Shown: piece after piece, positions 8,373 to 58,672 of the stretch | Layout: the number at the start of each line of letters is the position of its first letter | How positions within the stretch are numbered: position 1 is the stretch's first letter | Assembly (NCBI GenBank): GCA_964390005.1 | Contig: CAYMGM010000003.1 | Coordinates: forward strand, 81,758 to 145,757 | DNA: 64,000 nt | Source of the DNA: an uncultured Rhodospirillaceae bacterium | GTDB taxonomy: Bacteria > Pseudomonadota > Alphaproteobacteria > UBA9219 | Direction: 5' to 3' | The notes under the pieces: model-generated | What the model was told of the DNA's origin: nothing | The model's database searches: none | The model's input: only the letters and a program-made list of their open reading frames with translations | Program-made: the position numbers and the translations under genes

Positions 8373-8399
8373 AGTTTGGACCTCTTGAACGGGGTTTTC

Positions 8400-31260: not shown

Positions 31261-31296
31261 AAAAAGACCTCCGATCCTATTGCGTGAAAGGAATGT

Positions 31297-35386: not shown

Positions 35387-37246
35387 CTAGATCTGACGCA
35401 CGCCCCGCGTCTCTTTTCCGGGGCGGTCTGACCAGCTTTGAGCGACGCCAAGCCCAAGAAGAATTGCATAACTGGCGGCAATGGCTGGAATTTGCAGGCT
35501 AAAGTCTGCCAAAGCATGCAGCCCCACCAAAACACTGGCGGCCAAACCTAAGGTCGGCACATATTCCATGCGTCGTCGCTGCCGCACGCCTTGCGCACAA
35601 AGCGAAAGAAGGACCAAAAGCATGACGCCAAAAACAATGCAGGCTGGCAAGCCCCACTCGACGGCCAGCTCAAGATAATCGTTATGGGCGTGTTGAAAGC
35701 GCAAAGGCAGCGTATCGTTACGATAAAGGCGGAACGCGTTTTCAAAAGCGCCGAGCCCAAAGCCAAGCCACGGATTGTCCAAAATAGCATCGGCGGCCAG
35801 ATCATAGGCGCGCAGGCGCATTTCGGCGTCTTCGCCCAAAGTCGGCGAAACGCCTTCGCCGCGCGCGACAAGCAAATGTCCCGATGCGGCCAAAAGGCCG
35901 CCTAACAAGCCGATCAAGACAAGGCCGATGGCCAGGCCGCGCCAGCTTATGCCAAAACGGTTGATGATCAGACAAACGACAAAGACAAGCGCCCCCCCCG
36001 CCGTGCTGAAAAAGCCCGCGCGCGATCCCGATAAGACAAGAGCACAGAACAAAAGAACAGGCGGAAGAAAGACAAACAGGTCTTTGCGTTTCAGCCCCGT
36101 GCAAAAAGTCACGAAACGAATGCCCCACGAAAAATTCGTTCCGCCCATGCCAAAACGGTGTTTCATTTGCTGCCAAAGTAAGGCCAAACTTGCCAGAAAG
36201 GCTAAGCCCGTGTAGGTCGCAAAAGAGTTCTTGTTGATAAACGGCCCCGTGACAAAGCCTTCATACATCGTTTTGGGAAACCATAGAACGCGCTCTATCC
36301 CCAGCCAATGATCCAACAAGCCATATACGGCGTAAAAACAGGCCGTGCCGACAAAGACGCGCAACATAAGCTTGGCGCGCGCGCCGTCTCTTCCGGCAAA
36401 CAAGGCCAACAGGAAAAAAACGACATAGGACAAAACACGGGTCAATGATTCCTGTGCCGCGCTGGGGTCGATTGAAATCGCGCCATCTGACGGCGATTGG
36501 CCCGTAAGGGGGGCAGCCTCGATCCACAAGGGATGATGCCACGCGAGCGGCGTCCAGCTTACGACTTGAACCCAGCTCCAGCCAATCAGCGCTGTCATCA
36601 AGCCAACGGCAACAGCTAGCCTTTTATAAGGCGCGGCGCCCTCCCACTTTTCAGGCTTTTTGTAACGCGCATAAAGCGCGGCCATTAAAATCAACGCGCA
36701 AAAAACGCCCATAAGATCGCTGGACCAAGGGCGGTTGGCCCCAAAAGGAAGCGGTAAAAGCGCCCACAACCCCATAAAAGCTAAAAACCATCCCGGCTTG
36801 TCGGCAAACAGGGGGGCGGTTTGTTTGGTTGCGGCTTTCATCGCCTGCGCCCGACGCCGCGGTTGAGACTTTTCTTCTGCAACCATCGCGTCAAACGCCG
36901 CGCGGGAGGGAAACGGTTTTTGCGGCCTTGGCTGCGGCAGAACGGGGGCTTCAGGGGCTTCCGTGAGCGCCGGTTCTTGCGGTTGCTCATTCTCTGGCGC
37001 TGGCTCTTGTTGAGGCTCTGGTGCGGGTGGGGCAGGGGCTTCTTGAGGCGCGATAATCTCTTCGGCGACCTTGACCTCTTCTGTCGTTTTTTCTGCTGCG
37101 TTTTCTGGCGCGACGGGCGGCTCGGGCAAATCTAACGCCAGATTTTCTGGGGCGACAGCTGCCTGCGTTTCAGCCGTGGCGCGCTTTGATGTCGCGCCTT
37201 TCTTTTTGCGAGAGCCTGTCCGTGAAGCGTTCTTTTTCGTAGCCAT
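35387..37246 (-). CDS. O-antigen ligase / Wzy_C-family polytopic membrane protein with a Pro/Glu/Ala-rich N-terminal extension
   Basis: At least 10 predicted TM helices and the motif FQHAHNDYLELAVEWGL (H.HN.YL..l.e.G of the Wzy_C/RfaL/PglL families). Start re-picked at MATKKNASRTGSRKKKG (ATG 37246). Confidence 0.8.
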   Translation of the reverse strand: MATKKNASRTGSRKKKGATSKRATAETQAAVAPENLALDLPEPPVAPENAAEKTTEEVKVAEEIIAPQEAPAPPAPEPQQEPAPENEQPQEPALTEAPEAPVLPQPRPQKPFPSRAAFDAMVAEEKSQPRRRAQAMKAATKQTAPLFADKPGWFLAFMGLWALLPLPFGANRPWSSDLMGVFCALILMAALYARYKKPEKWEGAAPYKRLAVAVGLMTALIGWSWVQVVSWTPLAWHHPLWIEAAPLTGQSPSDGAISIDPSAAQESLTRVLSYVVFFLLALFAGRDGARAKLMLRVFVGTACFYAVYGLLDHWLGIERVLWFPKTMYEGFVTGPFINKNSFATYTGLAFLASLALLWQQMKHRFGMGGTNFSWGIRFVTFCTGLKRKDLFVFLPPVLLFCALVLSGSRAGFFSTAGGALVFVVCLIINRFGISWRGLAIGLVLIGLLGGLLAASGHLLVARGEGVSPTLGEDAEMRLRAYDLAADAILDNPWLGFGLGAFENAFRLYRNDTLPLRFQHAHNDYLELAVEWGLPACIVFGVMLLVLLSLCAQGVRQRRRMEYVPTLGLAASVLVGLHALADFSLQIPAIAASYAILLGLGVAQSWSDRPGKETRGVRQI

Positions 37247-37371
37247 GCCAAGACCAAGTAAAAACAAAAGGTTATAATGTATTTCCCCGTCCTTTATAAA
37301 GCATCTTGCCGCTAAAGGCAAAAAAGGGATGGGTGTGTCTAAGTAATTAAAAAATAAGTCTAATTTGGATG

Positions 37372-39098: not shown

Positions 39099-39342
39099 TT
39101 GGCGTTTTCTTCCGTAGAAAGAACCCGTAGGGCCGGCGGGCCGCCGGGGGCCTTTGTTATTCTTTCCGCGTCATCTCAATGTTTGATGGCTGAAACGCCT
39201 GTGAAGCGGTGGGAGAACTTAACGGTATTGATTTAAGACTATTTTAAGCTTGCCTTGCTAGCGATAGTATTCACACTCGTCGTGAGAGGTGGGATTCGCG
39301 CCTCTGCACGTTTCTTTCTGCCTATCCACTTGGGTGATTTCC

Positions 39343-42300
39343 ATGTCCTCTTTCCCGCTCAGAACATTCCTTGCCGCGTTGCTGGCTTCAAGCTGCTTTG
39401 TGCCTGTGGCGCAGGCGGCGACGATCACATGGGACGGCGGGGCGGGAACATCAAGCTGGTTTGATGCTAACAATTGGAGTGGAAATGCCGTTCCGACGAG
39501 TAGTGATGAAGTGCGGTTGGATGCAATAGGCGTTGACGTTAACGGACTTGTGGAAAGCACTGCGACGCTAAGCGTTGGGCATACAGGAACTGCTTCTTTG
39601 GCAATTGAGAATGGCGGCGCTGTTACGTCGTCTTCAGGTAATCATATTTTTGTTGGAAATGCCTCTGGCAGCAATGGAACGATTACAGTTAATGGAACGA
39701 ACTCGACGTTAGAAAGCGGAAACCAGCTTATTGTCGGATATCATGGCACGGGACGTTTAACCATTTCAGATGGTGGAAATGCAACAGCAGATTCAAGTAT
39801 TTATGCTGGTTACCTAACGGATGGTGTCGGCACGATTGTCGTTACAGGCTCTGATTCGATGTTGGAGAGTGGAAAACATTTTTTCGTTGGCTATTCCGGT
39901 AGCGGCAGCCTAACGGTTTCTGATGGTGGTACCGTCAGCTCTGCATCAGGGTATAATATTTATGCAGGTACCTATACTGGAAGCACAGGAACAATCACAG
40001 TAACAGACATTGGATCGACGTTGGAGAGTGGAAATGCCGTCGTTATCGGCAATTATGGCACTGGCACGCTGACAATATCTGGCGGAGGCTATGTCGGCTC
40101 TACGGATGACAGCATTTATGTAGGTTACAACGCTGGTAGCACAGGAACAATCACAGTAACAGGTTCTGGATCAACGTTGGCGAGTGGCAGAAATGTTTAC
40201 ATAGGCCAATCAGGCACAGGTACGCTGGTCATCTCGGATGGTGGTATTGTGAGTGATGCCTATGGAGAAATAGGAACCGTAGCTAACTCTATCGGCACAG
40301 TAACTGTAGTCGGTACAGGATCAAGGTGGACAAACTCTGATATTCTGTATGTTGGGCGTTCCGGTTCCGGAACGATGTTGGTTTCTTCTGGAGGCACTGT
40401 TAGTAGTGGCACCTCTTATATCGGGGCATGGAGCAACTCCACGGGCGACGTCACAGTAACCGGCTTGGGATCAACGCTGGAAAGCGGGCAGAATATTTCC
40501 GTCGGAAATGCGGGTGACGGCACACTCACGGTATCAGACTCTGGCACCGTTTCCACGTCTGGCGTCCTCACCATCGCGGCGGACACCGTCTCCACCGGTA
40601 CGCTGAACATCGGTGCGGCGTCGGGCTCTTCTGCCGTGGCTCCCGGCACGGTTACAGCCTCGCGCGGCATCGTCTTCGGCGGCGGCACCGGTACGATCGT
40701 CTTCAACCATACATCGACCAACTATACCTTCGCGTCGTCGATCTCCGGCGTGGGCACTATCGAGAGCGTCACGGGTACGACCTATCTCACTGGCGATCTT
40801 TCCGGCTTTTCCGGCACGTTCGATCTCGAGGGCGGGACGTTGAGCGTCGTGACCTCCGGCGTGCAGACCCTTTCAAACAGCCTCTCGGGCTCGGGCACCA
40901 TGGCCTTCGCCTCCGGCACCACCTACCTGACTGGCGACAGCTCGTCTTTCACCGGCACGGCAGCCGTGTCCGGTTCGGGGATCCTGTCCGTGAACGGAAC
41001 ACTCGGGGGTACGGTGGACGTAGCTGACGGCGGCACCTTGAAGGGCTCGGGCACCGTCGGTGGGATTGATGCGGCTTCGGGCGGCACAGTCGCCCCTGGC
41101 AACTCCATCGGAACCCTTTCTGTCTCTGGCAATGTGAGCTTTGCTAGTGGTTCGACCTATGACGTTGAGGCCAATCTTACCAGCTCGGACAAAATCGTAG
41201 CCACAGGCGCGGCCACAATCACGGGCGGAGACGTATCGCTGATCGCCTATCAAGGGGCGCTGCTTCGCGCCGGGACCACCTACACCATCTTGACCGCCGA
41301 TGGCGGCGTCTCAGGCACGTTTGACAGCATTTCTTTTGCCGATCCTCTTCTCTTTTTGACCGCGACGCTGTCCTATGATGCGACGGATGTTTACGCCTCA
41401 GTGATCCGCAATGGGGTTAGCTTGGCCAGCGTGGCCGGATCGGGCAATCAGGCGAACGCCGCCGCCGCAATCGAAAGCCTTGGCGCCGGGAATGCCGTTT
41501 ACGATGCCGTGGCCATGCAAAGCGATGTCGGCACGACACGCCAAGCCTATCAGGCTCTGTCAGGCGAGATTCACGCGAACGTGAAGGCCACGCTTCTTGA
41601 AGATCAAGCCGCCTTCGGGCGCGTCTTGGCCGGACGTTTGGCGCAGGCCGAAGACAATCAAACAGGGTTTGCCGCGCCGGTGACGGCTCCGGCCCCTGTG
41701 GTCGCTTCTGCGCGCGGGCGGATCCTTTATGGCGACAAGATCGCGAATGATGCTGCTGTTGCAAATGCCAAGATTGCGCCGACCGTTTGGGCGCAGGGCT
41801 TTGGCGGCTGGGGCAGCCGCGACGGCGACGCGAACGCCAGAGATTTTAAGCATCAAGACAAAGGTCTGATGCTGGGCGTGGACGGGATGATGGGGGATAA
41901 CTGGCGTCTTGGCCTCGCCTTTGGCTATGACCATGCGGATTATAATCAAGAGGACGAGACAGGCGACAAGGGCACGTCAGAGCGTTACAGCGTCTCGGCC
42001 TATGGCGGGCGGAGCTGGGGCAAGCTGAGCCTGCGAACTGGCCTTACCTATGCCTATAGCGACATCGACACCAAGCGGGGCGTGAGCTTTCCTTATTACA
42101 GCGATTATCTGAAAGGCTCCTATAACGCCCACAGCGTGAGCGGCTTTGCAGAAACGGCCTATGGCTTTGGCGACAAGGAAAGCAAGATCGAGCCCTTCGC
42201 CAATCTGGCTTGGGGTTATGTGAATGTGCCCGGCTTTACCGAAAAAGGCGGCGCGGCGGCGCTGACCGCCGAAGACAGCGACGGAACGCTGGGCAGCACA

Positions 42301-42609
42301 ACGCTGGGCGCGCGGGTGCGGCAAGTCTTGCCCTTCCTGACATCGGCCAACAATCGGGCGGCGTTCCAAGCCTCGGCGGGGTGGATGCACGCGATTGGCG
42401 ACGCGAACCCCGAGACCAGCTTGCGCTTTGCGGGCTCTCGCGCCTTTGAAACCCAAGCGGCCCCGCTGGCCCGCGATGCCGCTGTTCTTGGCGCTGGCGT
42501 TGATTATCTGATCGGCCAGCAAACCACGCTTGGCCTTGCGTACACCGGCCAGATCGGCGCGCACGCCGACACCCAAGCCCTTCGCGGGAATCTGAGCTAT
42601 CGGTTCTAA
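39343..42609 (+). CDS. Classical (type Va) autotransporter with a repeat-rich passenger
   Basis: Signal peptide MSSFPLRTFLAALLASSCFVPVAQA. ITWDGGAGTSSWFDANNWSG opening. Seven roughly 58-aa tandem repeats (G(S/T)xGT(I/V)TVTG..STLESG...(L/V)T(I/V)SDGG), then PATR-like beta-strand repeats. C-terminal beta-barrel ending LRGNLSYRF. Confidence 0.9.
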   Translation: MSSFPLRTFLAALLASSCFVPVAQAATITWDGGAGTSSWFDANNWSGNAVPTSSDEVRLDAIGVDVNGLVESTATLSVGHTGTASLAIENGGAVTSSSGNHIFVGNASGSNGTITVNGTNSTLESGNQLIVGYHGTGRLTISDGGNATADSSIYAGYLTDGVGTIVVTGSDSMLESGKHFFVGYSGSGSLTVSDGGTVSSASGYNIYAGTYTGSTGTITVTDIGSTLESGNAVVIGNYGTGTLTISGGGYVGSTDDSIYVGYNAGSTGTITVTGSGSTLASGRNVYIGQSGTGTLVISDGGIVSDAYGEIGTVANSIGTVTVVGTGSRWTNSDILYVGRSGSGTMLVSSGGTVSSGTSYIGAWSNSTGDVTVTGLGSTLESGQNISVGNAGDGTLTVSDSGTVSTSGVLTIAADTVSTGTLNIGAASGSSAVAPGTVTASRGIVFGGGTGTIVFNHTSTNYTFASSISGVGTIESVTGTTYLTGDLSGFSGTFDLEGGTLSVVTSGVQTLSNSLSGSGTMAFASGTTYLTGDSSSFTGTAAVSGSGILSVNGTLGGTVDVADGGTLKGSGTVGGIDAASGGTVAPGNSIGTLSVSGNVSFASGSTYDVEANLTSSDKIVATGAATITGGDVSLIAYQGALLRAGTTYTILTADGGVSGTFDSISFADPLLFLTATLSYDATDVYASVIRNGVSLASVAGSGNQANAAAAIESLGAGNAVYDAVAMQSDVGTTRQAYQALSGEIHANVKATLLEDQAAFGRVLAGRLAQAEDNQTGFAAPVTAPAPVVASARGRILYGDKIANDAAVANAKIAPTVWAQGFGGWGSRDGDANARDFKHQDKGLMLGVDGMMGDNWRLGLAFGYDHADYNQEDETGDKGTSERYSVSAYGGRSWGKLSLRTGLTYAYSDIDTKRGVSFPYYSDYLKGSYNAHSVSGFAETAYGFGDKESKIEPFANLAWGYVNVPGFTEKGGAAALTAEDSDGTLGSTTLGARVRQVLPFLTSANNRAAFQASAGWMHAIGDANPETSLRFAGSRAFETQAAPLARDAAVLGAGVDYLIGQQTTLGLAYTGQIGAHADTQALRGNLSYRF

Positions 42610-44303: not shown

Positions 44304-46289
44304 ATGCGGTTTTTGCGTGTCGGCGGGCTTTGTGTGCGCGCTCCTATCCGGCGTCTTGGTCTTTGCTTGTTGGCTGGGGCGATGTGTTTTTCTGTGACGC
44401 CTGCTTTGGCGTTGGAAGAGATCAACACTTATATTTTACCCTCGACGCCGAATTTCAGGGATCTTGCGGGCATTTCAGCGAGTAATGGCGGCACGGGGTT
44501 TGTCAATCCCACCAGCAATGGCGGCGCGATGCGGACGGGCGTCATTTATCGCTCGGATTATTTGTCTTTAAGCAACGAAGATTGGCAAAAGATCTCGACC
44601 TTGAATATTGGCCGCGATATCGATTTGCGGACCGATTCAGAAATCGCGTCTAATCCCGATCTTGTCCCGGCGGGGGCTGTCCATACGCAAATCAATATTT
44701 ATGGCACACCTGCACCAACCCCCAGTCCGTTTTGGGGCACGCCCGCAGAAGCGGTTGCGTTTATGGAAAGCGGATACCGCGATTTCGTTCGAGACCCGCC
44801 CACGCAACGGGATGGGTTTTATAATGTTTTGATGACCATCGCGCATGACGACTTTCCCGTGTTGTATCATTGCTCGGGGGGCAAGGATCGCACGGGATGG
44901 ACATCGGTCCTTCTTCAAACCATCGCGGGCGTGTCGCAAGACACGATTATGCAAGATTATCTTGCGACGAACAGTTATACCGCCGCGTTGATGGCCAGCA
45001 CGAAAGCCAACCTTTTATTGACGTATCCAACATGGGATCCCGCGACCATTGACGCGCTTTTGGGGGTGCAAGCCAGCTATCTTCAAGCGGCCTTTGATCA
45101 GGTGGCGATTTCCTATGGATCTATGGATGCCTATTTGAAAGAGGGGCTTGGGCTGACGCAGGCCGATATCTATGTCTTGCGCGCCAAGATGGTCTACTAC
45201 GCCTCACTGCCCGGTCAAAGCGGGATGGTCGGCAACGCCGCCGCAGGCGCTTCTTTGTTGAACGCACTGCAAAACACGCCGCTATCGGGGCATTACACGG
45301 CCTATAACTATTACCTGCAGTCGGCGATCGAGGCGGGGACGCTTGGCGGGGTCGAAACGCAAGTCGGCGGGCAGGTTCATGCCGATGCGGCTTCGTTCCT
45401 TTTACGTCAGCCTCAATGGATCGAGACGACGTCTCAACCCTATACCGCGCCGGAAAAAAGCGAACGTCCTTATCTTTGGATGGTTGGCTTGGGCGGCCAT
45501 TTTGAATCGAACGGCGGCAGCGGCATCGAAAGCAGCCGCGAAAACAGTGGCGGCACGCTTATGGGGGCGACCTATCGCCTTGACGACCAGATCAGCGCGA
45601 CCTTTGGCTATGGCTATCAGTGGGGCTCGGTCGGGAGCGCTGGCGGCGATGCAACGCTGAATACCTATTTGGCGATGGCGAGCGGGCGCTATGCGTTTTC
45701 TTCGCTTGAGGCCGGGCCTTATGTAACCGCGCAAGCCCATGCGGGTTATGTGGACTATGAAAGCAAACGGCATCTTGGCGGCGGCTTAGGGGCGGCAAGT
45801 GGTGATAGCGATGGCGCTCTTGTCAGCAGCTTTGTTGGGATTGGCGACCGGATCCGCGTGCCGTCTTTGACGCTGACACCGCAAACGGGCGTGCGCGTTA
45901 CACATCTTTTCCTTGGCGGCTTTCAAGAAACCGGTAGCGATCTTGCCTTGAAGGTGAAGTCGATGAACCCGATGACATCAAGCGGCGCCGCGCGGTTCGA
46001 GGCGCGTATGGATCCTCAATCCGTTGGCGCGTGGACATTTGCGCCTGCTGTGGCGGTTGGTTATGAACGTGCGTTTAACGATCCGCAAAGCGAGACCACA
46101 GGATCGCTTTATAATTTGCAAGTCAGTCAAAAGTCGGCTTTTGACAGCCGAAATCTTGCCAATTTAGATTTGGATGTGACGGCGCGTTATGAATCGCTTG
46201 TTGTGAAGGCGGGGCTTTCCGGTCTGATTGGCGATGCTGCCAAAAGCAGCGGTGTCAATGGGCGCTTGTCGGTGAGTTACAATTTCTAG
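44304..46289 (+). CDS. Autotransporter with a protein-tyrosine/dual-specificity phosphatase-like (CX5R) passenger
   Basis: Signal peptide (...CLLAGAMCFSVTPALA). NFRDLAG and IYRSDYL, then the P-loop LYHCSGGKDRTGW (HCxxGxxR(S/T)) at about 44868..44897, typical of the Y_phosphatase3-type family. The C-terminal roughly 280 aa are beta-barrel-like, ending GRLSVSYNF. Confidence 0.8.
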   Translation: MRFLRVGGLCVRAPIRRLGLCLLAGAMCFSVTPALALEEINTYILPSTPNFRDLAGISASNGGTGFVNPTSNGGAMRTGVIYRSDYLSLSNEDWQKISTLNIGRDIDLRTDSEIASNPDLVPAGAVHTQINIYGTPAPTPSPFWGTPAEAVAFMESGYRDFVRDPPTQRDGFYNVLMTIAHDDFPVLYHCSGGKDRTGWTSVLLQTIAGVSQDTIMQDYLATNSYTAALMASTKANLLLTYPTWDPATIDALLGVQASYLQAAFDQVAISYGSMDAYLKEGLGLTQADIYVLRAKMVYYASLPGQSGMVGNAAAGASLLNALQNTPLSGHYTAYNYYLQSAIEAGTLGGVETQVGGQVHADAASFLLRQPQWIETTSQPYTAPEKSERPYLWMVGLGGHFESNGGSGIESSRENSGGTLMGATYRLDDQISATFGYGYQWGSVGSAGGDATLNTYLAMASGRYAFSSLEAGPYVTAQAHAGYVDYESKRHLGGGLGAASGDSDGALVSSFVGIGDRIRVPSLTLTPQTGVRVTHLFLGGFQETGSDLALKVKSMNPMTSSGAARFEARMDPQSVGAWTFAPAVAVGYERAFNDPQSETTGSLYNLQVSQKSAFDSRNLANLDLDVTARYESLVVKAGLSGLIGDAAKSSGVNGRLSVSYNF

Positions 46290-49762: not shown

Positions 49763-50881
49763 ATGGCCGCTTATCTTTCGCAAGCAGACGTCGAAAAATT
49801 GATGAAAGAGCCTTCGCCGCTTGCGCGGGCCGAGGTTGCGGCCAAATTAGGTCAGGAAATCGACAATCCTCAGCTTTCGGCCAGCGAAGTCGCGATGGCG
49901 CACGATATCGTTCGCCTTATGGCCCGCGATGTCGAAATGTCTGTGCGCGCATCGTTGGCGCAGAATTTGCGCCGTGCCGTGCGCCTCCCCCATGACGTCG
50001 CTTTGCAGTTGGCACGCGATGTCGAAGCGGTCGCTTTGCCGATCCTGCAAGAATCAACCGTTCTGACAGACCATGATCTGATTTCGATCATTCAAGCCGA
50101 TTCGCCCCAAAAGCATGAAGCGATCGCAAGCCGCGAAAATGTTTCGGCTGAGGTCTCGGAAGCCATTATTACCAATGCCGGTGAAGGCGCTGTCGCCAAG
50201 CTGATGCAAAATAACACCGCGCAAATCTCGGAAAACAGCTTTAACAAGGCGATCGATCGCTTCCAAGCCTCTGACAATGTGAAAGAAGCTATTGTTAAAC
50301 GCGAAGCCCTCCCTGTTACGGTGGCCGAGCGTTTGACGTTCATCGTTTCTTCGCAATTGCAGGATTATCTCGTTTCGCATCACGAACTTTCTCCGGCTGT
50401 TGCCGCCGATCTTGTGCTGCAAAGCCGTGAGCGGACGATTGTCAACCTTTCGCGCGGGGGCGAAGAGGAAGATATTGAGCAACTGGTTCAACAAATGTTT
50501 CAAAACAACCGGTTAACCTCTTCGATCGTTCTGCGGGCTTTGTGCGTCGGCGATTTGCCCTTTTTTGAGGCCGCTATTGCCATTCGGGGTAATATTCCGC
50601 TGACCAATGCGCGAATCCTGATTCATGATGCGGGACATTTAGGGTTAAAGACCCTTTATGAAAAGGCTGGTATGCCCCCGAATTTACTGCCAATTGTGCG
50701 GGCCGCTTTGGACGTTTTACATAATACCGAGATGTCGGATGAAGGCAAAGATGCTGTAAGCCTTTATCGCGCCTGTGTTTTAGAGAGAATTCTGACCCAA
50801 TTTGAGCATTTGGCGTCGGATGATATCGATTATCTTGTGGCGAAGCTTGGCGACATTTTAACCCCAGCTTCTGCGGCCTAA
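49763..50881 (+). CDS. DUF2336-like helical-repeat protein
   Basis: 372 aa of HEAT-like helical repeats (...RAEVAAKLGQEI...VRASLAQNLRRAVRLPHDVALQLARDVEAVALPILQESTVLTDHDLISII), matching my recollection of alphaproteobacterial DUF2336 proteins. Confidence 0.65.
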   Translation: MAAYLSQADVEKLMKEPSPLARAEVAAKLGQEIDNPQLSASEVAMAHDIVRLMARDVEMSVRASLAQNLRRAVRLPHDVALQLARDVEAVALPILQESTVLTDHDLISIIQADSPQKHEAIASRENVSAEVSEAIITNAGEGAVAKLMQNNTAQISENSFNKAIDRFQASDNVKEAIVKREALPVTVAERLTFIVSSQLQDYLVSHHELSPAVAADLVLQSRERTIVNLSRGGEEEDIEQLVQQMFQNNRLTSSIVLRALCVGDLPFFEAAIAIRGNIPLTNARILIHDAGHLGLKTLYEKAGMPPNLLPIVRAALDVLHNTEMSDEGKDAVSLYRACVLERILTQFEHLASDDIDYLVAKLGDILTPASAA

Positions 50882-51146
50882 GTTCCGAAAGGAACGAAAT
50901 ATTAACAATTTGGGTGCAAATTTGAAGAGAGCTTGAGGCAGGTGCGTCTCAAGCAAGGTTTCGTGTGCGCCCTTTGATTTGAAACGATGTGTTGATCGGG
51001 CGCGCCTTCTTGAACAATTGAGCGTTGAGCATAGCGCGAGGATGTTTAATGGCGACAAGGAATACGATAAAAATCAGTCGATTTTTAAAGACGTTTCCAT
51101 GGCGCCAAACGTCTTGCAAAGGATCATTTTTATGTGGGGGCGTGTC

Positions 51147-54100
51147 ATGACACACAGCCGGATTTTTTGTGCATCCGAACGATCGGACTTGCCCTCTTCA
51201 AAACGACGCGGCTTTGCTATCGCACCAATCCTGTATTTGCTGATGATGATCGGCGTTGCCGCCGGTATGCTGTTCAGCAGCTTTAGTCAGGTTCTTCATA
51301 GCAACATCAATACAACAAATATGTTGACGGCGAAGAACGATATCAATGCCATCGCGACAGCTTTATCGGCGTCGAGCGGTGTCTCGGAAGGGTTGGTTTG
51401 TACGCCGCCGTCAAGTGCTGCGGCTGCCACGGGGGCATGCGCAACGGCGACAATCCGAAATCTTCTTGTTCCTCTGGCTTCTGCCGATGCGGCGCATCTA
51501 CCGAAAAATAAGGAAGCTCTTGCTGGATCGGGGGGGAATCCTCCGGCAGAATATGGCGTTCTTTCCGCCGATGCGGGGGTTAAACAACTCGACCCCTGGG
51601 GCCATTATTATATCTATTGTCGTTGGAACACCGCGGTTCTCAATGACATGAACAAGCAAGTCATCAAGATTATTACGGCGGGACCGTCTGGCACATTGCA
51701 ATCAACTTGCGATGATGGCGGCAACAACGCCAACGCCGTCGGAGACAACCAGGTCATTTCTTTGACCGGGAATATGATCAAACAACGTGCCTCGGTGTGG
51801 GTCAATCAGGGGCAAAATGCAACCTACGGCACGACAGACGCGCAGGTTCTTGTGACGGCGACCGGCGGTATGGAAGCCATAAAGGCAAGCGTCGCGGGCC
51901 TTGTCGCGCAGACGGCGACGATTGGTTCTTTTCATGGTCAAAATGGGCACTTTGACTCTTTGACCTTGGGCACGCCTTTGGATATCGCCTATGGCGGTAC
52001 AGGGGCTTCCGATTCGCTTCATGCACGCAATAACTTGGGGTCTGGGGCTATTGGCGACAGCCTTTTTGTTTCTACAACGGCGACAGACGCGCGCGCGACC
52101 TTAGAGGCGGGCGCGATCGGCGGGTCGTTGTTTGTGGCCGGAACGGCGACCGAAGCGCGGAGCGTTCTTGAAGCTGGCGCTGTTGGTGGGTCTGTTTTTG
52201 TCGCGGCAACGACAACAAGCGCGCGCGATGCTTTAGGGGCAGGCGCGATTGGTCATCAGCTTTTCACCTCAACAAGCCAGTCCGGTGCGCGAAGCGATCT
52301 TGGGGCTGGGACAACGGGCGATTCTTTGTTCCAAGCCTCGGATCCTCATGCGGGAAGATCCGTTCTCGGCGCTGGGACAGTTGGAGAAGGCGTTTTTCAA
52401 TCGATGACTTATGCTGCAGCGTGGGCCGCTTTGGGGCTGACGGGCGGGTCAGGAACGTTGCAAGTGAATGTGACAGGCCAAGCCGGGACCGTTCCCGCTA
52501 CGGGGATTGTCGGTATCGTTTCAATTTCGCAAGGCGGTACGGGGGCTTCAAGCGCGGCATCGGCGCGTACGAATCTGGGCGCAGATAACGCTAGTAATTT
52601 GACAACAGGGACGCTGTCTGTGTCGCGCCTTGCCGACAACTCGATTACCAGCGCAAAACTGACCACAACAGGCGTGACCGCGCAGACTTATAATTGGGGT
52701 ACAGTCGATGCGGCAGGTCGTGTGACAGAGGCAAACGACGTTGTTTTAGGAAATCTTACGGATGGAAGTGGCGACGGTATCGCTGCCTCGACTTCCGGTG
52801 GCGGTTCTTTGACGTTTATGACCGCCAGCACCGTTTGGATGACGTTAGACTCGAATGGGTATTTAGGGCTCAATGTCGCCAATCCGGGCGAACGTTTGCA
52901 TGTGAACGTTGGCAATATCCGCGTGTCGGGACCTGCCGCCACGGCGCGTGATTTGCAGTTTACGACAAGTACGTCTAGCTTGCGTTGGGTTTTGGGGACC
53001 GACAGCACGGCGGAAAGCGGTAGCAACGCGGGCTCGAACTTTTTCCTGAACCGTTATAGCGATGCGGGCGGTGCGCTTGGTACAGTGCTTGCGATTACGC
53101 GTTCGACAGGGGCCGCATCTTTTTCAGGCACCGTCGCTTCAACAGGCGGTTTCAATGGCAATTTGACAGGCAATGTGACGGGGCAAATCTCGCTTCCCGA
53201 TGGGACTGTCGGCGCGCCTTCGATGAACTTTCAGAACAATGCCAACATGGGGCTTTACCGTCCCGGCGCCAGCGCGATGGCGTTTGTGACTGGCGGGGCC
53301 GAGCGTTTGCGTTTGTCCGCGACCGCAGGGATCGGTATTGGGACGACCGCGCCGCGTGTGGCGTTGGATATCGGGTCTTTAACTGACGCGATGGTTCTTC
53401 CTGTCGGAACGACGGCACAGCGTCCGGGGTCAAACTTTGCTGGCGCGGTGCGCTATAACACGACGATCCCGTCGCTTGAAGTCAACAACGGGAGCGGGTG
53501 GAGTTCACTTATTACCAGCACATCGTCAATGTCGAGTGGCGTCATTTTAGGGGCCTCGGCGGCGGCGACAAACCCCCAGCGTTCGGGCGATGCGACGACG
53601 GGCCTGTTCAGCGCGGCGGCGGGGACGGTCAGCGTGGCGTCGTCGAGCGCGGAAGTTGCACGTTTCAGCGCGACAGGGCTTAATTTGCCAGGCTTGACGA
53701 CGGCCTATTCGATTGCGGGCAGCAAGGTCGCTGCGCTGCCGGGTAGCGATACGACCAGTCTGGCTTTGGGGCCGAATGCCTTGGCCGCGCAAAATACCAC
53801 AAGCTTGAACAACGTCGCGGTAGGCTCGCAGGCAGCGACAAGCCTGTTATCCGGTCATGAAAACGTCGCCGTGGGCGTTCAAGCCCTTTACACGACGACG
53901 ACCGGTTATCAGAACGTCGCGGTGGGTACGCATGCCCTTTATACCGATTCATCCGGCGCGCAAAACTTGGCGGCTGGCTATGAAGCCCTGTACAAAAACA
54001 CGACCGGGTCGGACAACGTCGCCAGTGGTGCGCGAGCTCTTTATAGCAACCAAGGCGGCAACAATAACGCGACGCTTGGCTATGAAGCGATGTACTATAA

Positions 54101-57100
54101 TTCATCGGGCAGTGAAAACACCGCGGCCGGTTTCATGGGGATGGCGTCGAATACGACCGGCAACAACAACACGGCGCTGGGTGCTTATGCGTTGTACAAT
54201 TCGGCGACGCGGACGACTGGGAATAACAACACGGCCATCGGATATCAGGTCGGCTCGAAAACGCTTGTTTCGGGGTCGGGTAATATCTTGATCGGCACGT
54301 CAAGCTTGACCGATGTGCCATCGGCGACCACCAACAATTGGATGAACATCGGCAACACGCTTTATGCCGATCTGTCGGCGGGCAATGTCGGCTTTGGCAA
54401 CGCTACGATCCATACGGGTGTGTCGGTCGATATGGGGTCGCGCGTGGATAGCTTGCTTTTGCCGACAGGTACGACGGGGCAACGTCCGGGCTCGGGCGTG
54501 CAGGGGATGATGCGCTATAACAGCTCGATCGGCCAGTTAGAGGCTTATACGGCGTCGGGTTGGGCGACAATTTTGTCGAACACATCAACGAGCACGGCGG
54601 ATGTCTTTTTAGGCAGTACGGCGGCTTTAACCAACCCGCATCGTAATGGCGATGCGACGACGGGTCTGTTCAGTCCTGTGGCGGGAACGGTGGCCATTTC
54701 AACCGCCGGTACGGAAGCGCTGCGCGTGAGCGCAACAGGATCCGTGGGGATTGGGACGACGGCGCCTAGCGCGTCGCTGGATGTCCGTGGTGGGGCGTTC
54801 ATTTCTTCTGCAAATGACGGTATCGTCAGAATAGGTTCGGATTCAAACGGTGAGATTGAGATTGGAAATATTGGGCGTTCAACGTCAGGACAGCCTTATA
54901 TCGATTTCCATAGCTCGGTGAACTCGCCGGATTATGACGTGCGTTTGCAGGCCTCGGGCGGGACAACAACCAGCGGGATGGCTGATTTTCTGATTTTGGC
55001 GCAGCGCGTCACGGTCGGGTCGGGAGCCCCTACCGCGGGTGCTGGCCTTGATCTTAGCAGCCGGACGGGGACGGCTTATAGCTCGATGATTGTGCCAAAA
55101 GACACGACGGCGAACCGGCCTTCAGCCGGTGTTGCAGGTATGCTGCGTTACAACACGACGCTTGGCATGTTCGAAGCCTATACGGCCTCGGGTTGGTCGA
55201 CCATCTTGGCGAACACGGCCACGAACTCGCCCGACATCTATTTGGGGCCGGGCGCGACGCAAACAAATCCGCATGTCAGCGGGGATATCACAACGGGTCT
55301 TTTCAGTGGCGCGGCCAGTACGGTTGGCATCGCAACCGCGGGCGTTGAGCGCTTGCGCGTGACCGCGACGGGAAGCGTCGGGATTGGGACGACGGCACCG
55401 TTAGAACGGCTTCATGTTGCATATGCTGGAAACACAACAGCTTTAATTGATTCAATGGCGACCTCTCGCATATCTCAAGTGGCCTTTATCCGCGGATCTG
55501 GTAATGCGACATATATTGGGCCTACAGCATCAAACACAATGGACTTCTGGTCTTATGAGACTATTCCATTCCGCTTTGCTATTAATAATGCTGAGGTCAT
55601 GCGTATTACCACGACGGGAAGCGTTGGGATTGGAACGACAACACCGGCCTATCCACTCGATGTAAATGGGTCGGCACGAGTTACCGGCAATATCTTTGGG
55701 ATCCAAAACGGATATGGGATTTATTCAGATACGGCTTATTCAACTGGGGCGGGGATTCAGGTTTTAGGAACAACAGCCTCAACCCCCAATACCTTGTCTT
55801 TTTGGACAGGAGCTGCCGCACTCGCGGAGCGTATGCGTATCACAGCGACCGGCAGTGTCGGTATCGGAACGGCGTCGCCGCTTTATATGCTGGATGTCGC
55901 GGGCGGTATCCGGTCAAGCGGCGAAATCATTTCCACGAGCGCCAATCAATTCCGCATGGTCTATGGAAGCTATGGTGCGTTTTGGCGCAATGATGGATCG
56001 AATACGTATCTGTTGTTGACGGCTTCAGGGGATCAATACGGGACTTGGAATACGTTGCGTCCGTTCCAAGTTAACAACGTGACGGGGAATGTGACCGTCG
56101 GAACGAACGCCTATTTTGGTTCTAATCTTGGGATCGGGACGGCGACGACGAGTGCAGGAGCCTCTTTGGATATGGGCTCTAAAACGGATAGCATCTTGAT
56201 GCCCAAAGGTACGACGGCTCAACGTCCGGCGACCGGGCTTGCGGGTATGGCACGTTACAACAGCTCAATCGGGCAGTTGGAGGCTTATACAGCGTCAGGG
56301 TGGGTCACGATTTTGGCGAATACGGCAACCAGCTCGCCGGATGTGTATTTGGGTAGCGCAACAAGCGCGACGAATCCGCATGTGAATGGCGACGTGACAA
56401 CAGGATTGTTTTCGCCTGCGGCAAGTAACGTCGCTATTGCAACGGCGGGGACAGAGCGGTTGCGTGTGACCGCGACGGGGAGCGTTGGGGTTGGAACGAC
56501 AGCCCCCGCCTATACTTTTGACGTTACAGGCCAAGGTCGGTTTTTATCTTCTGTTGGAGTCGGTGGTGCGCCGCTCGGCTATTCGGCATTTAGTGTCGCC
56601 GGCGAAAGTACAATGAACAGCCAGGATGGGAATGGTCTTTTCAACATTGTTGCTGGTGGGTATCAAGCCGTAGCGGGAAGCACATATGTTTATACCAATA
56701 CACGTGGCGCTTCGCGGTTGCTATTGGCTGATGCTAACATTGGTTTGTTCGCTGGTGGTGCAAACGGTACGGGGTCTGCAGGAACGACCATCTCATGGAC
56801 GCAGCTTGCTGATATGACCGGGTCTGATCATATTTGGTTAAGCCCGCGCGGGACCTCGACCGATTTCTATATGACCTCTACTGGGGGTATTGGTATTGGG
56901 ACGGCGACGCCACTTGCAACGTTGAATATTAAATCATCTTACAGCTGTTGCGGTGCGGCGGGAAGTTCGGGTACGTCGGCTCTTGCCATCGATGGAGCGG
57001 TCAATGACTTGGCTCTTCGGCTTTATAACTCAGCGACTGGTGGTCGTGATTGGCGTTTGCTGTCTTCAGGCGGTGGTACAGGCGTTGGGGTTGGTAACTT

Positions 57101-58607
57101 TAACATTTATGACGTTTCCGCAGGAGCGACGCGCTTGAGTATCTCAGCAACAGGATACGTGGGTATTGGAATGACGGCGCCGAAAGCCTATCTTGATATT
57201 GGTACATTGTATTCCTGTTGTGCGACGCAGACGCCGACGCTTGGGATTTCTGAGAACTCGACTTCAAATAGTCGAATGCCGTGGATCCAGTTCCATGCAG
57301 CGGGTAAAGCAGAGGCCTTCTTGCGATTGCAGACGGCGAATCGTACCCTTGAAATTGGTGATAACCAAGCAGTCGGTGCGGGGCTTGCAATTATGAAACC
57401 TGACTTGTCTGGACGAAATGTATACTTATCATCGGGTGACTCAAGTTACATCTTAGGAACATTAGGTGTTGGAACCTCGTCTCCAGGGGTTAACTTTGAT
57501 CTTCAATCAAATAATCCGTATACAGCCATGAGAATTGGCGCTGCATCGACACCAACGATTCAGTTCCTATCTTCTTGGGGCGGCACAGATGTTAAGTATT
57601 GGGATATGTATGCAAACTCGTTTAATTTTATATTCCGTGCTGTCAGTGATGATTTTATGAACAACACAACGTGGCTTCAAGTTAATCGAGGTGGAACGTA
57701 CGGGTATAGCGTTAGCTCGATTTCATTTCCAAGTGCAGCTCCCGTCGGTATTGGGACATCTAGCCCGACGCATAAGTTGCATGTTTATAACCCAGCGGGA
57801 GGCGCTCGGACGGGGTACCATCAAGGGATGGGTGGCGTTGGTGATGTTTATATCACCGACAACAACGCTATCCTTTCCTCAAACGTTTACTACAATGGGG
57901 CATGGTATAATACGGCGGCTGGAATGGGAACCATTATAGATTTCTCGAATGGTACCCTAAACATTCAAACGACAGCATCGGCAGCGGCTGGGGCAACCCC
58001 GACAACCACATCGCGACTCTATATGACCAATGCAGGGTTCTTGGGCCTTAATGCGGGCGTGCCAACCTATCCCGTCCAAGTCGGGACCACGACATCGAAC
58101 GGGAACGGCGCTTTCCTTGATCCTGCCGGTGTTTGGACCAACGCATCTGATGCGCGCAGCAAAGAGAACGTGCATGAAGTGCCCTATGGTCTTGAGACGC
58201 TGATGAAGTTGAAACCCGTTGCCTATGAAATGAAAGGCACGCATCAAAAGCAGATCGGCTTTATCGCGCAGGAAGTCGCCAAAGTGGTGCCAGAAGTCAC
58301 GTCGGTCAGCGATAAGGGCTGGTACGGGTTGAGTTACGGCAACATGACGGCGATTACCGTGAAGGCTATTCAGGAAATGAAGGTCGAAAACGACAGGCTG
58401 GCTGCCGAAGTCGCGCGGTTGAAAGACCAAGGTCAAGACGTGCGGGCAGGTCGCGATGGCGGACGGACCGATGCGTTGACCGCTGAAGTTGCCGAGCTGC
58501 ACCGGACCGTCACGCTGCTGATCTGGGGGCTTGGCGAGCTGGCCATTATCGCTTTGGGCGGCGTGGGCGCGGCGATCTTCTTTGCCGCGCGACGGCGAAG
58601 GCGGTAA
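51147..58607 (+). CDS. Giant (about 2,486 aa) fibre protein: prepilin/pseudopilin-like N-terminus, tail-fibre-type repeats, C-terminal S74 intramolecular-chaperone domain and TM anchor
   Basis: Single ORF; the track starts it at 50979, and I prefer ATG 51147 or 51132. N-terminus KRRG-FAIAPILYLLMMIGVAAGM, then LDPWGHYYIY...IITAGPSGT. YGGTGAS...ARNNLG plus six ARxxLGAGxxGxxLF repeats. N(T/V)AxGxxAL repeats. Four modules with GT(T)xQRP...G(M)xRYN....LEAYTASGW. C-terminus ASDARSKENV...IGFIAQEVAKVVPEV...AITVKAIQEM (Peptidase_S74-like). Final LLIWGLGELAIIALGGVGAAIFFAARRRRR. Confidence 0.85.
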   Translation: MTHSRIFCASERSDLPSSKRRGFAIAPILYLLMMIGVAAGMLFSSFSQVLHSNINTTNMLTAKNDINAIATALSASSGVSEGLVCTPPSSAAAATGACATATIRNLLVPLASADAAHLPKNKEALAGSGGNPPAEYGVLSADAGVKQLDPWGHYYIYCRWNTAVLNDMNKQVIKIITAGPSGTLQSTCDDGGNNANAVGDNQVISLTGNMIKQRASVWVNQGQNATYGTTDAQVLVTATGGMEAIKASVAGLVAQTATIGSFHGQNGHFDSLTLGTPLDIAYGGTGASDSLHARNNLGSGAIGDSLFVSTTATDARATLEAGAIGGSLFVAGTATEARSVLEAGAVGGSVFVAATTTSARDALGAGAIGHQLFTSTSQSGARSDLGAGTTGDSLFQASDPHAGRSVLGAGTVGEGVFQSMTYAAAWAALGLTGGSGTLQVNVTGQAGTVPATGIVGIVSISQGGTGASSAASARTNLGADNASNLTTGTLSVSRLADNSITSAKLTTTGVTAQTYNWGTVDAAGRVTEANDVVLGNLTDGSGDGIAASTSGGGSLTFMTASTVWMTLDSNGYLGLNVANPGERLHVNVGNIRVSGPAATARDLQFTTSTSSLRWVLGTDSTAESGSNAGSNFFLNRYSDAGGALGTVLAITRSTGAASFSGTVASTGGFNGNLTGNVTGQISLPDGTVGAPSMNFQNNANMGLYRPGASAMAFVTGGAERLRLSATAGIGIGTTAPRVALDIGSLTDAMVLPVGTTAQRPGSNFAGAVRYNTTIPSLEVNNGSGWSSLITSTSSMSSGVILGASAAATNPQRSGDATTGLFSAAAGTVSVASSSAEVARFSATGLNLPGLTTAYSIAGSKVAALPGSDTTSLALGPNALAAQNTTSLNNVAVGSQAATSLLSGHENVAVGVQALYTTTTGYQNVAVGTHALYTDSSGAQNLAAGYEALYKNTTGSDNVASGARALYSNQGGNNNATLGYEAMYYNSSGSENTAAGFMGMASNTTGNNNTALGAYALYNSATRTTGNNNTAIGYQVGSKTLVSGSGNILIGTSSLTDVPSATTNNWMNIGNTLYADLSAGNVGFGNATIHTGVSVDMGSRVDSLLLPTGTTGQRPGSGVQGMMRYNSSIGQLEAYTASGWATILSNTSTSTADVFLGSTAALTNPHRNGDATTGLFSPVAGTVAISTAGTEALRVSATGSVGIGTTAPSASLDVRGGAFISSANDGIVRIGSDSNGEIEIGNIGRSTSGQPYIDFHSSVNSPDYDVRLQASGGTTTSGMADFLILAQRVTVGSGAPTAGAGLDLSSRTGTAYSSMIVPKDTTANRPSAGVAGMLRYNTTLGMFEAYTASGWSTILANTATNSPDIYLGPGATQTNPHVSGDITTGLFSGAASTVGIATAGVERLRVTATGSVGIGTTAPLERLHVAYAGNTTALIDSMATSRISQVAFIRGSGNATYIGPTASNTMDFWSYETIPFRFAINNAEVMRITTTGSVGIGTTTPAYPLDVNGSARVTGNIFGIQNGYGIYSDTAYSTGAGIQVLGTTASTPNTLSFWTGAAALAERMRITATGSVGIGTASPLYMLDVAGGIRSSGEIISTSANQFRMVYGSYGAFWRNDGSNTYLLLTASGDQYGTWNTLRPFQVNNVTGNVTVGTNAYFGSNLGIGTATTSAGASLDMGSKTDSILMPKGTTAQRPATGLAGMARYNSSIGQLEAYTASGWVTILANTATSSPDVYLGSATSATNPHVNGDVTTGLFSPAASNVAIATAGTERLRVTATGSVGVGTTAPAYTFDVTGQGRFLSSVGVGGAPLGYSAFSVAGESTMNSQDGNGLFNIVAGGYQAVAGSTYVYTNTRGASRLLLADANIGLFAGGANGTGSAGTTISWTQLADMTGSDHIWLSPRGTSTDFYMTSTGGIGIGTATPLATLNIKSSYSCCGAAGSSGTSALAIDGAVNDLALRLYNSATGGRDWRLLSSGGGTGVGVGNFNIYDVSAGATRLSISATGYVGIGMTAPKAYLDIGTLYSCCATQTPTLGISENSTSNSRMPWIQFHAAGKAEAFLRLQTANRTLEIGDNQAVGAGLAIMKPDLSGRNVYLSSGDSSYILGTLGVGTSSPGVNFDLQSNNPYTAMRIGAASTPTIQFLSSWGGTDVKYWDMYANSFNFIFRAVSDDFMNNTTWLQVNRGGTYGYSVSSISFPSAAPVGIGTSSPTHKLHVYNPAGGARTGYHQGMGGVGDVYITDNNAILSSNVYYNGAWYNTAAGMGTIIDFSNGTLNIQTTASAAAGATPTTTSRLYMTNAGFLGLNAGVPTYPVQVGTTTSNGNGAFLDPAGVWTNASDARSKENVHEVPYGLETLMKLKPVAYEMKGTHQKQIGFIAQEVAKVVPEVTSVSDKGWYGLSYGNMTAITVKAIQEMKVENDRLAAEVARLKDQGQDVRAGRDGGRTDALTAEVAELHRTVTLLIWGLGELAIIALGGVGAAIFFAARRRRR

Positions 58608-58645
58608 GAGGGGATTCAGCATCTAGCATGCAGCATTCGGGAAGG

Positions 58646-58672
58646 GGGGCGCGTGAGCGCCCCTTTTCTTTT
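58646..58672 (+). terminator. Intrinsic terminator after the giant ORF
   Basis: GGGGCGC-GTGA-GCGCCCC hairpin followed by TTTTCTTTT. Confidence 0.8.

Follow-up and report, generated by a model that had tools for sequence, protein, structure and literature searches.

We analyzed a 64,000-nucleotide stretch of DNA from an uncultured Rhodospirillaceae bacterium (assembly GCA_964390005.1, contig CAYMGM010000003.1; hereafter the window) in which one giant gene, here called the fiber gene, encodes a protein of 2,486 residues that joins a conserved N-terminal head domain to a long body of fiber modules, a C-terminal Peptidase_S74 (S74) chaperone and a terminal transmembrane segment. The explanation we favor, which taken whole has about an even chance of being right, is that this gene encodes a homotrimeric cell-surface fiber adhesin with a length on the order of 100 nm and a lineage-specific attachment module, resembling the "mosaic adhesive trimeric" (MAT) fibers of Bdellovibrio bacteriovorus, whose S74 subgroup includes Bd3182 (Caulton et al. 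2024, PMC10769870). The parts of this explanation are not equally firm. We consider it highly likely that the protein is a trimeric, S74-matured surface fiber and likely that the head is the module that attaches it to the cell, and we put forward attachment by pilin-type assembly as a tentative proposal that falls somewhat short of an even chance. Chromosomal fiber adhesins of the MAT-like kind are already known; the conserved pilin-like anchor and the membrane-tethered chaperone are what is novel here.

The reading frame is open from 50979 to 58607 in both the open reading frame (ORF) listing and the translation, and translation bears out the first-pass annotation, which had reported a single uninterrupted ORF of ~2,486 residues (Table 1). 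The start codon is uncertain, with in-frame alternatives upstream as far as 50979. Hydropathy analysis finds only two hydrophobic segments in the protein, residues 23-43 and ~2454-2483, with KRR and RRRRR as their flanks, and the terminator-like hairpin beyond the stop codon is consistent with transcription ending at the fiber gene.

Evidence that the protein is a trimeric fiber comes first from its body. The T4 gp34-type trimerization domain, which scores above its Pfam cutoff, matches PDB entries 5nxh, 4uxe and 5yvq (the last being tail-fiber protein S) at ~1e-16 and has ~50% local identity with gp34. Closer to the N terminus, the trimeric beta-helix module matches 8OJN, which is residues 632-922 of Bdellovibrio Bd3182 and covers the beta-helix tip region, and a short match to Bd2133 (PDB 8OND, E 3.6e-4) spans residues 1388-1430, overlapping the third copy of a repeated ~115-residue module. 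The likeness to fiber adhesins of predatory bacteria that had been drawn from the sequence at first sight thus becomes direct homology of the body to Bd3182 and Bd2133. The repeated module occurs four times, as had been noticed, at ~115 residues rather than ~100, and the copies share 43-72% pairwise identity with E values down to 1e-44; copy 1 follows the pattern LPxGTTAQRP...RYN...W...GIGTTAP. Searches against phage proteins point the same way. Eighteen PHROG families were matched, nine of them in the tail category, and tblastn with the body reached 1,061 phage records, where, among the matches listed, similarity starts at about residue 729 and the phage genes are structural or tail-fiber genes of T4-like phages, cyanophages, pelagiphages and roseophages. 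The repeats first described as N(T/V)AxGxxALxxNTTG units of ~15 residues are present as eight to nine N(V/T)AxG..ALY..(T/S)(T/S)G units with a period of 17 residues, and they match tail-fiber proteins of pelagiphages and roseophages together with the PHROG 4636 tail spike.

Nearer the head, GGTGASDSLHARNNLG (GGTGASDSLH) precedes a second set of short repeats, whose units start at residues 293, 315, 337, 359, 381 and 403. All six units that had been described there are present, each of 22 rather than ~20 residues, but residues 301-560, which include them, had no match in 50,697 phage records, and we have therefore dropped the label of phage tail-fiber repeats. Taken together, the gp34, S74, PHROG, PDB and phage matches indicate that the body is a trimeric, S74-matured fiber of the kind seen in MAT fibers and phage receptor-binding proteins. 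We also considered whether the 17-residue repeats belong to a trimeric autotransporter. Pfam shows neither YadA_anchor nor Hep_Hag in the protein, and its C terminus consists of S74 and an alpha-helical transmembrane segment; this candidate was rejected because there is no C-terminal beta-barrel anchor. As a separate observation, the only cysteines beyond the leader and head are two Cys-Cys doublets in the distal fiber region, SYSCCGAAG and LYSCCATQT.

The C terminus is as first described, an S74-type chaperone plus a membrane anchor. Peptidase_S74 (PF13884) covers residues 2334-2384 at 47.1 bits against a cutoff of 22, and the catalytic SDxxxK motif is present as S2334-D-A-R-S-K2339, so that, as in the K1F endosialidase and T5 pb1, the S74 domain has the catalytic Ser-Lys pair. 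The predicted self-cleavage site lies between A2333 and S2334, and Bd3182, with its own SDxxxK motif, is cleaved between A781 and S782 (PMC10769870).

The head has a very different distribution from that of the body. The N terminus of the fiber protein reads MTHSRIFCASERSDLPSSKRRG and then FAIAPILYLLMMIGVAAGMLF, with LDPWGHYYIYCRW following at residues 148-160 and VIKIITAGPSGT at residues 171-182. Across 20 homologs that are only ~40% identical, G22, F23, P27, L29, Y30, G36, the DPWG..Y.YCRW block and four cysteines are invariant or nearly so (Cys 85, 158 and 188 are invariant and Cys 98 nearly so), and within the hydrophobic tract the invariant positions are F+1, P+5, L+7, Y+8, G+14 and F+21. 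The basic leader ending in Gly, the Phe and ~20-residue hydrophobic helix after it and the LDPWG block, all noted in the first reading, are therefore conserved features of a family. The consensus runs [R/A]-G-F-[A/G]-[I/V/L]-[A/G]-P-[I/V]-L-Y-x-L-x-L-x-G-[V/I]-x-x-G-x-L-F at the N terminus and continues with C-P-P...C, L-P, P-x-E-x-G-V, K-x-L-D-P-W-G-H-Y-Y-I-Y-C-R-W-E, I-I-S-A-G-x-x-G-x-L-x-T-x-C-G and G-D-D, the later motifs appearing here as the DPWGHYYIYCRW block, IISAGxxGxLxTxCG and GDD. The stretch G-F-[AG]-[IVL]-[AG]-P-[IV]-L-Y is kept in 83 members, in which the distance from the called start to the conserved Gly is 5-50 residues. Two AlphaFold models (pLDDT, the predicted local distance difference test, 78 and 85) predict a long helix followed by a beta-rich globule. 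We argue from the four conserved cysteines that the head folds outside the cytoplasm, where it would contain two putative disulfides.

A word-indexed search of 5.8 billion proteins returned only six homologs of the first 335 residues, and scanning 185,579 species genomes for the head pattern gave 24 head loci, every one in an uncultured alphaproteobacterial metagenome-assembled genome (MAG). In all 24, the head opens a giant ORF of 800 to >3,600 residues, most of which reach the contig end. An exhaustive hidden Markov model (HMM) search of 1.84 billion cluster representatives (50%-identity clusters, E < 1e-3) identified 219 head proteins, 152 of them below 1e-30. The head is N-terminal in all 219 representatives, and the proteins range from 0.5 thousand residues up to 5,301; the smallest complete members, of ~520 residues, consist of the head, a short stalk and S74. 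S74 stands at the C terminus of 31 family members, ~11 of which add a C-terminal transmembrane segment and basic tail as in the window. Because no head homolog was found in IMG/VR, GenBank phages or the 72,556 plasmids of PLSDB, we reject an origin of the head from phages or known plasmids. Nor did the whole-head profile match any PDB sequence at E <= 10, and Foldseek searches with the two models against PDB and BFVD (best E ~0.1, TM-score ~0.15) assigned no fold. The head is a previously undescribed domain common to giant proteins of about 200 clusters, and it occurs in uncultured Alphaproteobacteria only, several of which carry the label "Bdellovibrionales".

One sub-branch of the family (members P0003, P0051, P0052, P0053 and P0167) has a conserved in-frame extension of 140-195 residues before the Gly-Phe of R-G-F-A-I-A-P, and this extension has helix-turn-helix (HTH) motifs, HTH_23 at 2.5e-10 in P0167 and a weak HTH_50 in P0051. 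Loci of this sub-branch include L002:969-2108 and L023:9509-13180 (L numbers denote the fiber-gene loci we compared); the sub-branch adjoins relaxase or integrase genes, with a relaxase gene next to the L002 copy. Such a member could act as a regulator tethered in the membrane, its ectodomain being giant, or could carry a releasable DNA-binding leader.

Comparison with MAT fibers separates what is shared from what is not. Like them, the protein described here is chromosomal, non-phage and trimeric, is assembled from phage tail-fiber-like modules, has direct sequence homology to Bd3182 (8OJN) and Bd2133 (8OND), ends in S74 with SDxxxK, and combines a constant cell-proximal N-terminal domain with a variable distal end. 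All 21 MATs begin with a signal peptide and then a conserved, beta-rich N-terminal domain of ~130 residues (PMC10769870), whereas the protein in the window begins with a class-III-like hydrophobic helix and a four-Cys alpha/beta head of ~230 residues, the two N-terminal domains being set apart here by their descriptions. It is also larger, at 2,486 residues in a family that reaches 5,301, against 922 to 1,151 residues for the quoted Bdellovibrio constructs; it has a transmembrane anchor after the chaperone, and its host belongs to uncultured Alphaproteobacteria rather than to Bdellovibrionota sensu stricto. Phage fibers offer a second comparison: the T4 gp34-type trimerization domain is shared with them, as is the arrangement in which the N terminus is attached and the C terminus is distal, but the fiber gene is not phage-encoded, its product has membrane segments at both ends, and its N-terminal attachment domain matches no virion adaptor in BFVD or phage records.

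Next, we consider whether the head is a pilin. A class III signal consists of a hydrophilic leader ending in Gly, followed by 21 mostly hydrophobic residues that start a helix of ~50 residues (PMC8179133). The leader in the window ends in ...KRRG22, with the Gly invariant in the head alignments, the tract from F23 to F43 is exactly 21 residues long, and AlphaFold predicts a 52-residue helix, with pLDDT ~90 across it, before the beta strands. The head therefore shares with pilins the leader-Gly, the 21-residue hydrophobic tract and the long-helix layout. Gly+14, invariant in heads, has its counterpart at the same position in Geobacter PilA-N and PulG. When a profile of the 75 N-terminal residues was compared with 177,635 PDB sequences, only two matches appeared at E <= 10, each to a Geobacter type IV pilin (PilA-N), aligned in register with G-F on G-F, P+5 on E5 and G+14 on G14, at a non-significant E of ~1. 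Similarity to the type II secretion system (T2SS) protein GspG is also local: the DPWGxxYxY...(S/T)xGxDG motif corresponds to GspG profile positions 67-99, hhalign of the head with four solved GspG proteins gave a local DPWG...(S)xGxDG alignment (P = 3.6e-4, probability 37%), T2SSG was the commonest Pfam family among heads (4/20, best E 0.018, sub-threshold, over those same positions), and TIGR01710 (GspG) matched the N-terminal helix over residues 21-74 weakly, at 15.9 bits against a cutoff of 88.85. A link to type IV pili is mildly supported by two pilin genes near other family members. At L011:6746-7390 (-), 2.5 kb from the fiber gene, there is a canonical type IV prepilin, SRRG followed by FTLTEMAIVVGIIG (SRRG/FTLTE), and a Bundlin/PilS-like gene (by precomputed Pfam) lies two genes downstream of a 4,282-residue family member at L033:19424-19993 (+), its product being 34% identical to the L011 prepilin with Leu rather than Gly at -1. 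When all loci and the window were searched for canonical prepilins by regular expression and tblastn, only L011 was found, plus the divergent L033 homolog.

Several results weigh against a pilin. Glu at +5 is near-universal among pilins, and the first reading had remarked on Pro at this position; Pro proved invariant, in 20/20 aligned heads and 83/83 motif-bearing members. No pilin or pseudopilin HMM reached its curated threshold, the Pfam scan gave no N_methyl (TIGR02532) report even at E <= 1, global hhalign of the head with the four GspG sequences was not significant (probability 2.5%), and Foldseek against PDB returned no pilin among the matches listed for either model (best E 0.2-0.3, TM-score ~0.1). 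The 64-kb window contains no pilus, T2SS or prepilin-peptidase gene, and pilus genes are not conserved beside the fiber gene, a pilin gene being nearby in only 2/34 loci, although many of the ~30 loci without one are truncated contigs. The HTH-type extension upstream of Gly-Phe in one sub-branch suggests a stable membrane anchor instead, and we know of no prepilin with such an HTH-bearing leader. Finally, a trimer of >2,000-residue chains at a pilus tip would be ~3x the size of the largest modular pilin in an InterPro survey, which has 860 residues (PMC8179133).

Known tip subunits show how far the comparison holds. CofB is a homotrimeric tip minor pilin (PMC6048534), and the fiber protein would resemble the type IVb minor pilins CofB and TcpB in joining an N-terminal pilin-type module to a trimerizing C-terminal extension at a filament tip, and would resemble modular pilins such as Streptococcus sanguinis PilB in that a functional module is grafted onto a pilin (PMC8179133). 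The differences from these proteins are that no IPR012902/N_methyl or pilin-domain HMM and no fold is matched, that the extension is a phage-type fiber of >2,000 residues with S74, and that the gene is outside any pilus operon. CofB and TcpB keep Glu5, which in the head is replaced by the invariant Pro. GspK lacks Glu5, as does the head. Together with GspI and GspJ, GspK occupies the tip of the pseudopilus (PMC8179133). Scores are sub-threshold throughout, the globular part has no Foldseek similarity to solved structures of either T2SS pseudopilin, the major GspG or the tip subunit GspK, and the head differs from both in its two putative disulfides, its fusion to a giant fiber and its setting with no gsp operon nearby.

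The first-pass annotation had staked its pilin-like head on a significant pilin-like hit or fold, and formally neither was found, whether by fold comparison or by HMM threshold. What survives of that claim is the class III layout, the GspG-like motif and the in-register pilin matches; all of these matches are sub-threshold, Glu5 is missing and there is no pilin fold. The other outcome it had envisaged was a generic signal anchor and nothing more, and the N-terminal segment is so extremely conserved as to contradict this. Because Glu5, HMM thresholds and fold similarity all fail while three structural features agree, we file the head as pilin-like and not as a pilin. In the fullest version of the pilin proposal, which strikes us as doubtful, heads would be type IV filament subunits of a new class without Glu5; their homotrimer would cap or initiate a pilus or pseudopilus, letting the filament machine display a phage-type receptor-binding fiber of >2,000 residues matured by the membrane-tethered S74 chaperone.

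The explanation we favor can be set out as a sequence of steps. The precursor would be inserted in the inner membrane by both terminal hydrophobic segments, with its basic ends in the cytoplasm and the ~2,400 residues between them outside, a topology that we infer from the positive-inside rule and the four conserved head cysteines. The tethered C-terminal S74 chaperone may then align three C termini in two dimensions and nucleate trimer folding from the C terminus, after which S74, if active as in K1F, T5 and Bd3182, would cut between A2333 and S2334 and expose the distal binding tip. The mature fiber would stay held through its three N-terminal heads, whose Glu5-less helices may bundle into a homotrimer that serves as tip or initiator, in the manner of the minor pilins CofB and TcpB. 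A type IV filament would carry the fiber through the outer membrane, which we propose as the most economical route, and the distal modules, if they act like phage receptor-binding proteins and MAT fibers, would bind a surface structure of another cell or a substrate. Mature Bd3182 has ~780 residues and is 55 nm long (PMC10769870), and scaling from it would make the ~2,080 fiber residues here roughly 150 nm in length.

The alternative that survives best keeps the same fiber and holds that the N-terminal segment is no pilin but a bitopic anchor, permanent and uncleaved, whose docking domain in the periplasm is novel; the envelope would then be reached or crossed by some other route or, in HTH members, contact would be coupled to the cytoplasm in a ToxR-like manner. 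We regard it as rather unlikely. Several of the points against a pilin fit it (no pilin fold in Foldseek, HMM signals that are all sub-threshold, Pro at +5, pilus-gene linkage that is not conserved), as do the conserved in-frame cytoplasmic HTH extensions of some members, and for Bdellovibrio MAT fibers, too, it is unknown what the N-terminal domain attaches to (PMC10769870). A generic anchor, however, leaves unexplained why Gly(-1), Phe(+1), Gly(+14) and an exact 21-residue tract are near-invariant at ~40% identity and why the only PDB matches of the N-terminal profile are pilins, in register, and a ~2,000-residue fiber tethered in the inner membrane would have no evident way across a diderm outer membrane.

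The genomic setting bears on the remaining alternatives. The window is housekeeping DNA, encoding CysS, GltX, UvrB, PlsX, FabH, RecO, PhaC, homoserine dehydrogenase, GlpX, RecJ, PurN, RapZ, RibF and a sigma-54 activator; the fiber gene has a DUF2336 gene upstream and Sir2/CobB, RapZ and RibF genes downstream, and the description of these neighbors as DUF2336 and cobB, with no phage or pilus genes, holds within the 64 kb. ORF clustering across loci places DUF2336 beside the fiber gene in 16 loci, the window included, and phosphoribosyltransferase in 13; L031 and L033 also have DUF2336 directly upstream, which brings the count to 18/34 loci. Genes for a D-Ala-D-Ala carboxypeptidase (S11 plus SPOR) and phasin are often found at fiber loci, and the conserved order is phasin, S11 peptidase, phosphoribosyltransferase, DUF2336, fiber. 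The gap between DUF2336 and the fiber gene is variable, the orientation of DUF2336 differs in three loci, its product is soluble and we found no literature on it, so we treat it as a synteny marker and not as a partner. From the shared housekeeping synteny we conclude that the gene is for the most part chromosomal and passed on vertically, mobile elements carrying a minority of the copies.

That minority is the basis for an improbable alternative in which the fiber is a cell-contact device of mobile elements, namely a mating-pair or recipient-recognition adhesin, and the window copy is domesticated or ancestral. It draws on mobile-element genes that adjoin several family members: L002 has a relaxase, L001 has integrases and a resolvase, L027 has an integrase together with RelE, L026 has Toprim/LPD7, and L028 has MPTase-PolyVal and Peptidase_S26. 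Phage-type receptor-binding modules would suit the recognition of other bacteria, and the R64 PilV tip adhesins provide an analogy for mating-pair or recipient recognition. The window copy and at least 17 others, however, are in conserved housekeeping synteny with no mobility genes, and PLSDB contains no head homolog. This alternative concerns the target of the fiber and is compatible with the explanation we favor and with either anchor model.

We reject, as very improbable, the reading of the gene as a tail fiber that belongs to a prophage or gene transfer agent, or else to a tailocin or extracellular contractile injection system, and happens to lie in the chromosome. Its gp34 and S74 body modules do occur in phage tail fibers, but no phage structural, lysis or integration gene lies within the 64 kb, the housekeeping synteny is conserved, the head is not in IMG/VR or GenBank phages, a terminator-like hairpin follows the stop codon, and transmembrane segments at both ends are incompatible with assembly of a virion in the cytoplasm. 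Least credible of all, and also rejected, is that the long ORF is an assembly artifact or pseudogene: the contig is metagenome-derived, independent short-read assemblies from that population are interrupted within the gene or close to it, and frameshifts split some homologs from other assemblies, but collapse or mis-assembly is unlikely because the internal DNA repeats are short (each <90 nucleotides) and <=78% identical, while uninterrupted head-bearing ORFs of 1,200 to >3,600 residues occur in many independent MAGs and full-length relatives of 2,519 and 4,282 residues share the start-to-end architecture.

Table 1. Features of the fiber gene and its immediate surroundings, with positions in the window
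Feature	Residues	Position	Strand	Basis or remark
DUF2336 gene		49763..50881	+	Pfam 1.5e-68; soluble, helical; upstream neighbor
Whole fiber gene		51147..58607	+	ATG at 51147; 2,486 codons plus stop, no break
Basic hydrophilic leader, ending ...KRRG	1-22	51147..51212	+	Read directly from sequence
21-residue hydrophobic tract FAIAPILYLLMMIGVAAGMLF	23-43	51213..51275	+	Hydropathy and conservation; class-III-like alpha1-N / transmembrane segment
Conserved head domain	23 to ~250	51213..51896	+	Alignments, AlphaFold, 219 cluster representatives
Six 22-residue ARxxLGAGxxGxxLFxxxTxxx repeats	293-424	52023..52418	+	Self-comparison
Trimeric beta-helix module	549-676	52791..53174	+	PDB 8ojn, E 1.6e-6
~115-residue module, copy 1	728-844	53328..53678	+	Self-comparison; PHROG 25721, 1325, 2803
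17-residue NVAVGxxALYxxTTG repeats, eight to nine	889-1044	53811..54278	+	Beta-helix-type stalk
~115-residue module, copy 2	1082-1200	54390..54746	+	Self-comparison
~115-residue module, copy 3	1290-1411	55014..55379	+	Self-comparison
T4 gp34-type trimerization domain	1576-1685	55872..56201	+	Pfam Gp34_trimer 2.3e-26, above cutoff
~115-residue module, copy 4	1662-1778	56130..56480	+	Self-comparison
Cys-Cys doublets	1934-1935 and 2024-2025	56946-56951 and 57216-57221		90 residues apart
Intramolecular chaperone fragment	2334-2486	58146..58604	+	S74 domain, coiled coil, transmembrane anchor
C-terminal transmembrane segment	~2454-2483	58506..58595	+	Hydropathy; RRRRR follows
Terminator-like hairpin		58639..58670	+	14-bp stem, 8 G-C pairs, T-rich tail; 32 nucleotides past fiber stop

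Other genes around the fiber gene were noted in passing. The hairpin at 58639-58670 overlaps GTG 58653, the start listed for the Sir2/CobB ORF, and the true cobB start is probably further downstream than this GTG. A few kilobases upstream of the fiber gene are two autotransporter genes, at 39289-42609 (+), encoding 1,106 residues with no recognized passenger domain, and at 44304-46289 (+), whose passenger is a tyrosine phosphatase (Y_phosphatase3). A 644-residue membrane protein with a Wzy_C (O-antigen ligase) domain is encoded at 35387-37321 (-); Wzy_C is also found in O-oligosaccharyltransferases of the PglL/PilO type, which glycosylate pilins. The genes at 30403-31302 (-) and 33233-35269 (-) have sub-threshold Pfam matches only, to a SUEL-type lectin (4e-5) and a protein kinase (3e-4), respectively. 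At other loci, the last part of the fiber gene overlaps with a Peptidase_S26 (signal peptidase/TraF-type) gene (L028:15809-16630), and an AMP-binding (acyl-CoA synthetase-like) gene directly follows the fiber gene (L031:9514-11211 and L033:17682-19421); the window has neither. Extra fiber-like or S74 genes lie directly downstream of the fiber gene at L002:2256-7589 and 7620-9212 (a second and third) and at L018:16787-19234, and these downstream L002 and L018 ORFs contain no head motif, which suggests exchangeable or stacked fiber cassettes.

The closest relatives of the UvrB encoded in the window (75-82% identity) all come from uncultured MAGs labeled Alphaproteobacteria, Rhodospirillaceae or "Bdellovibrionales", and none is from a cultured organism. 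Because NCBI taxonomy places the alphaproteobacterial predator Micavibrio under Bdellovibrionales, the "Bdellovibrionales" labels probably mark Micavibrio-like alphaproteobacteria. The genes for PhaC and phasin point weakly to a free-living metabolism.

The literature we searched describes no pilin-type head joined to an S74 fiber, in agreement with the first-pass annotation, which knew of no described protein with this combination. Phage-module fiber adhesins have only recently been recognized in a bacterial predator, where their attachment to the cell is explicitly unresolved (PMC10769870). The hosts of the family described here are uncultured Alphaproteobacteria of a lineage for which NCBI often places MAGs among Micavibrio-type predators. 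The family pairs a MAT-type fiber with a different, strongly conserved, pilin-like anchor, so that the attachment question becomes testable. Its membrane-tethered S74 chaperone suggests how a phage-type trimeric fiber could fold outside the cytoplasm. Even with the pilin reading wrong, the head would remain a new fold without a PDB or viral match, found in ~200 clusters of giant envelope proteins. If the reading is right, cleavage at Gly-Phe in the HTH sub-branch could also set a DNA-binding domain free in the cytoplasm, the range of cargo known for type IV filaments would be greatly extended in both size and type, and these proteins would be by far the largest pilin-anchored adhesins known and would give a first concrete answer to how MAT-like fibers attach to the bacterial surface.

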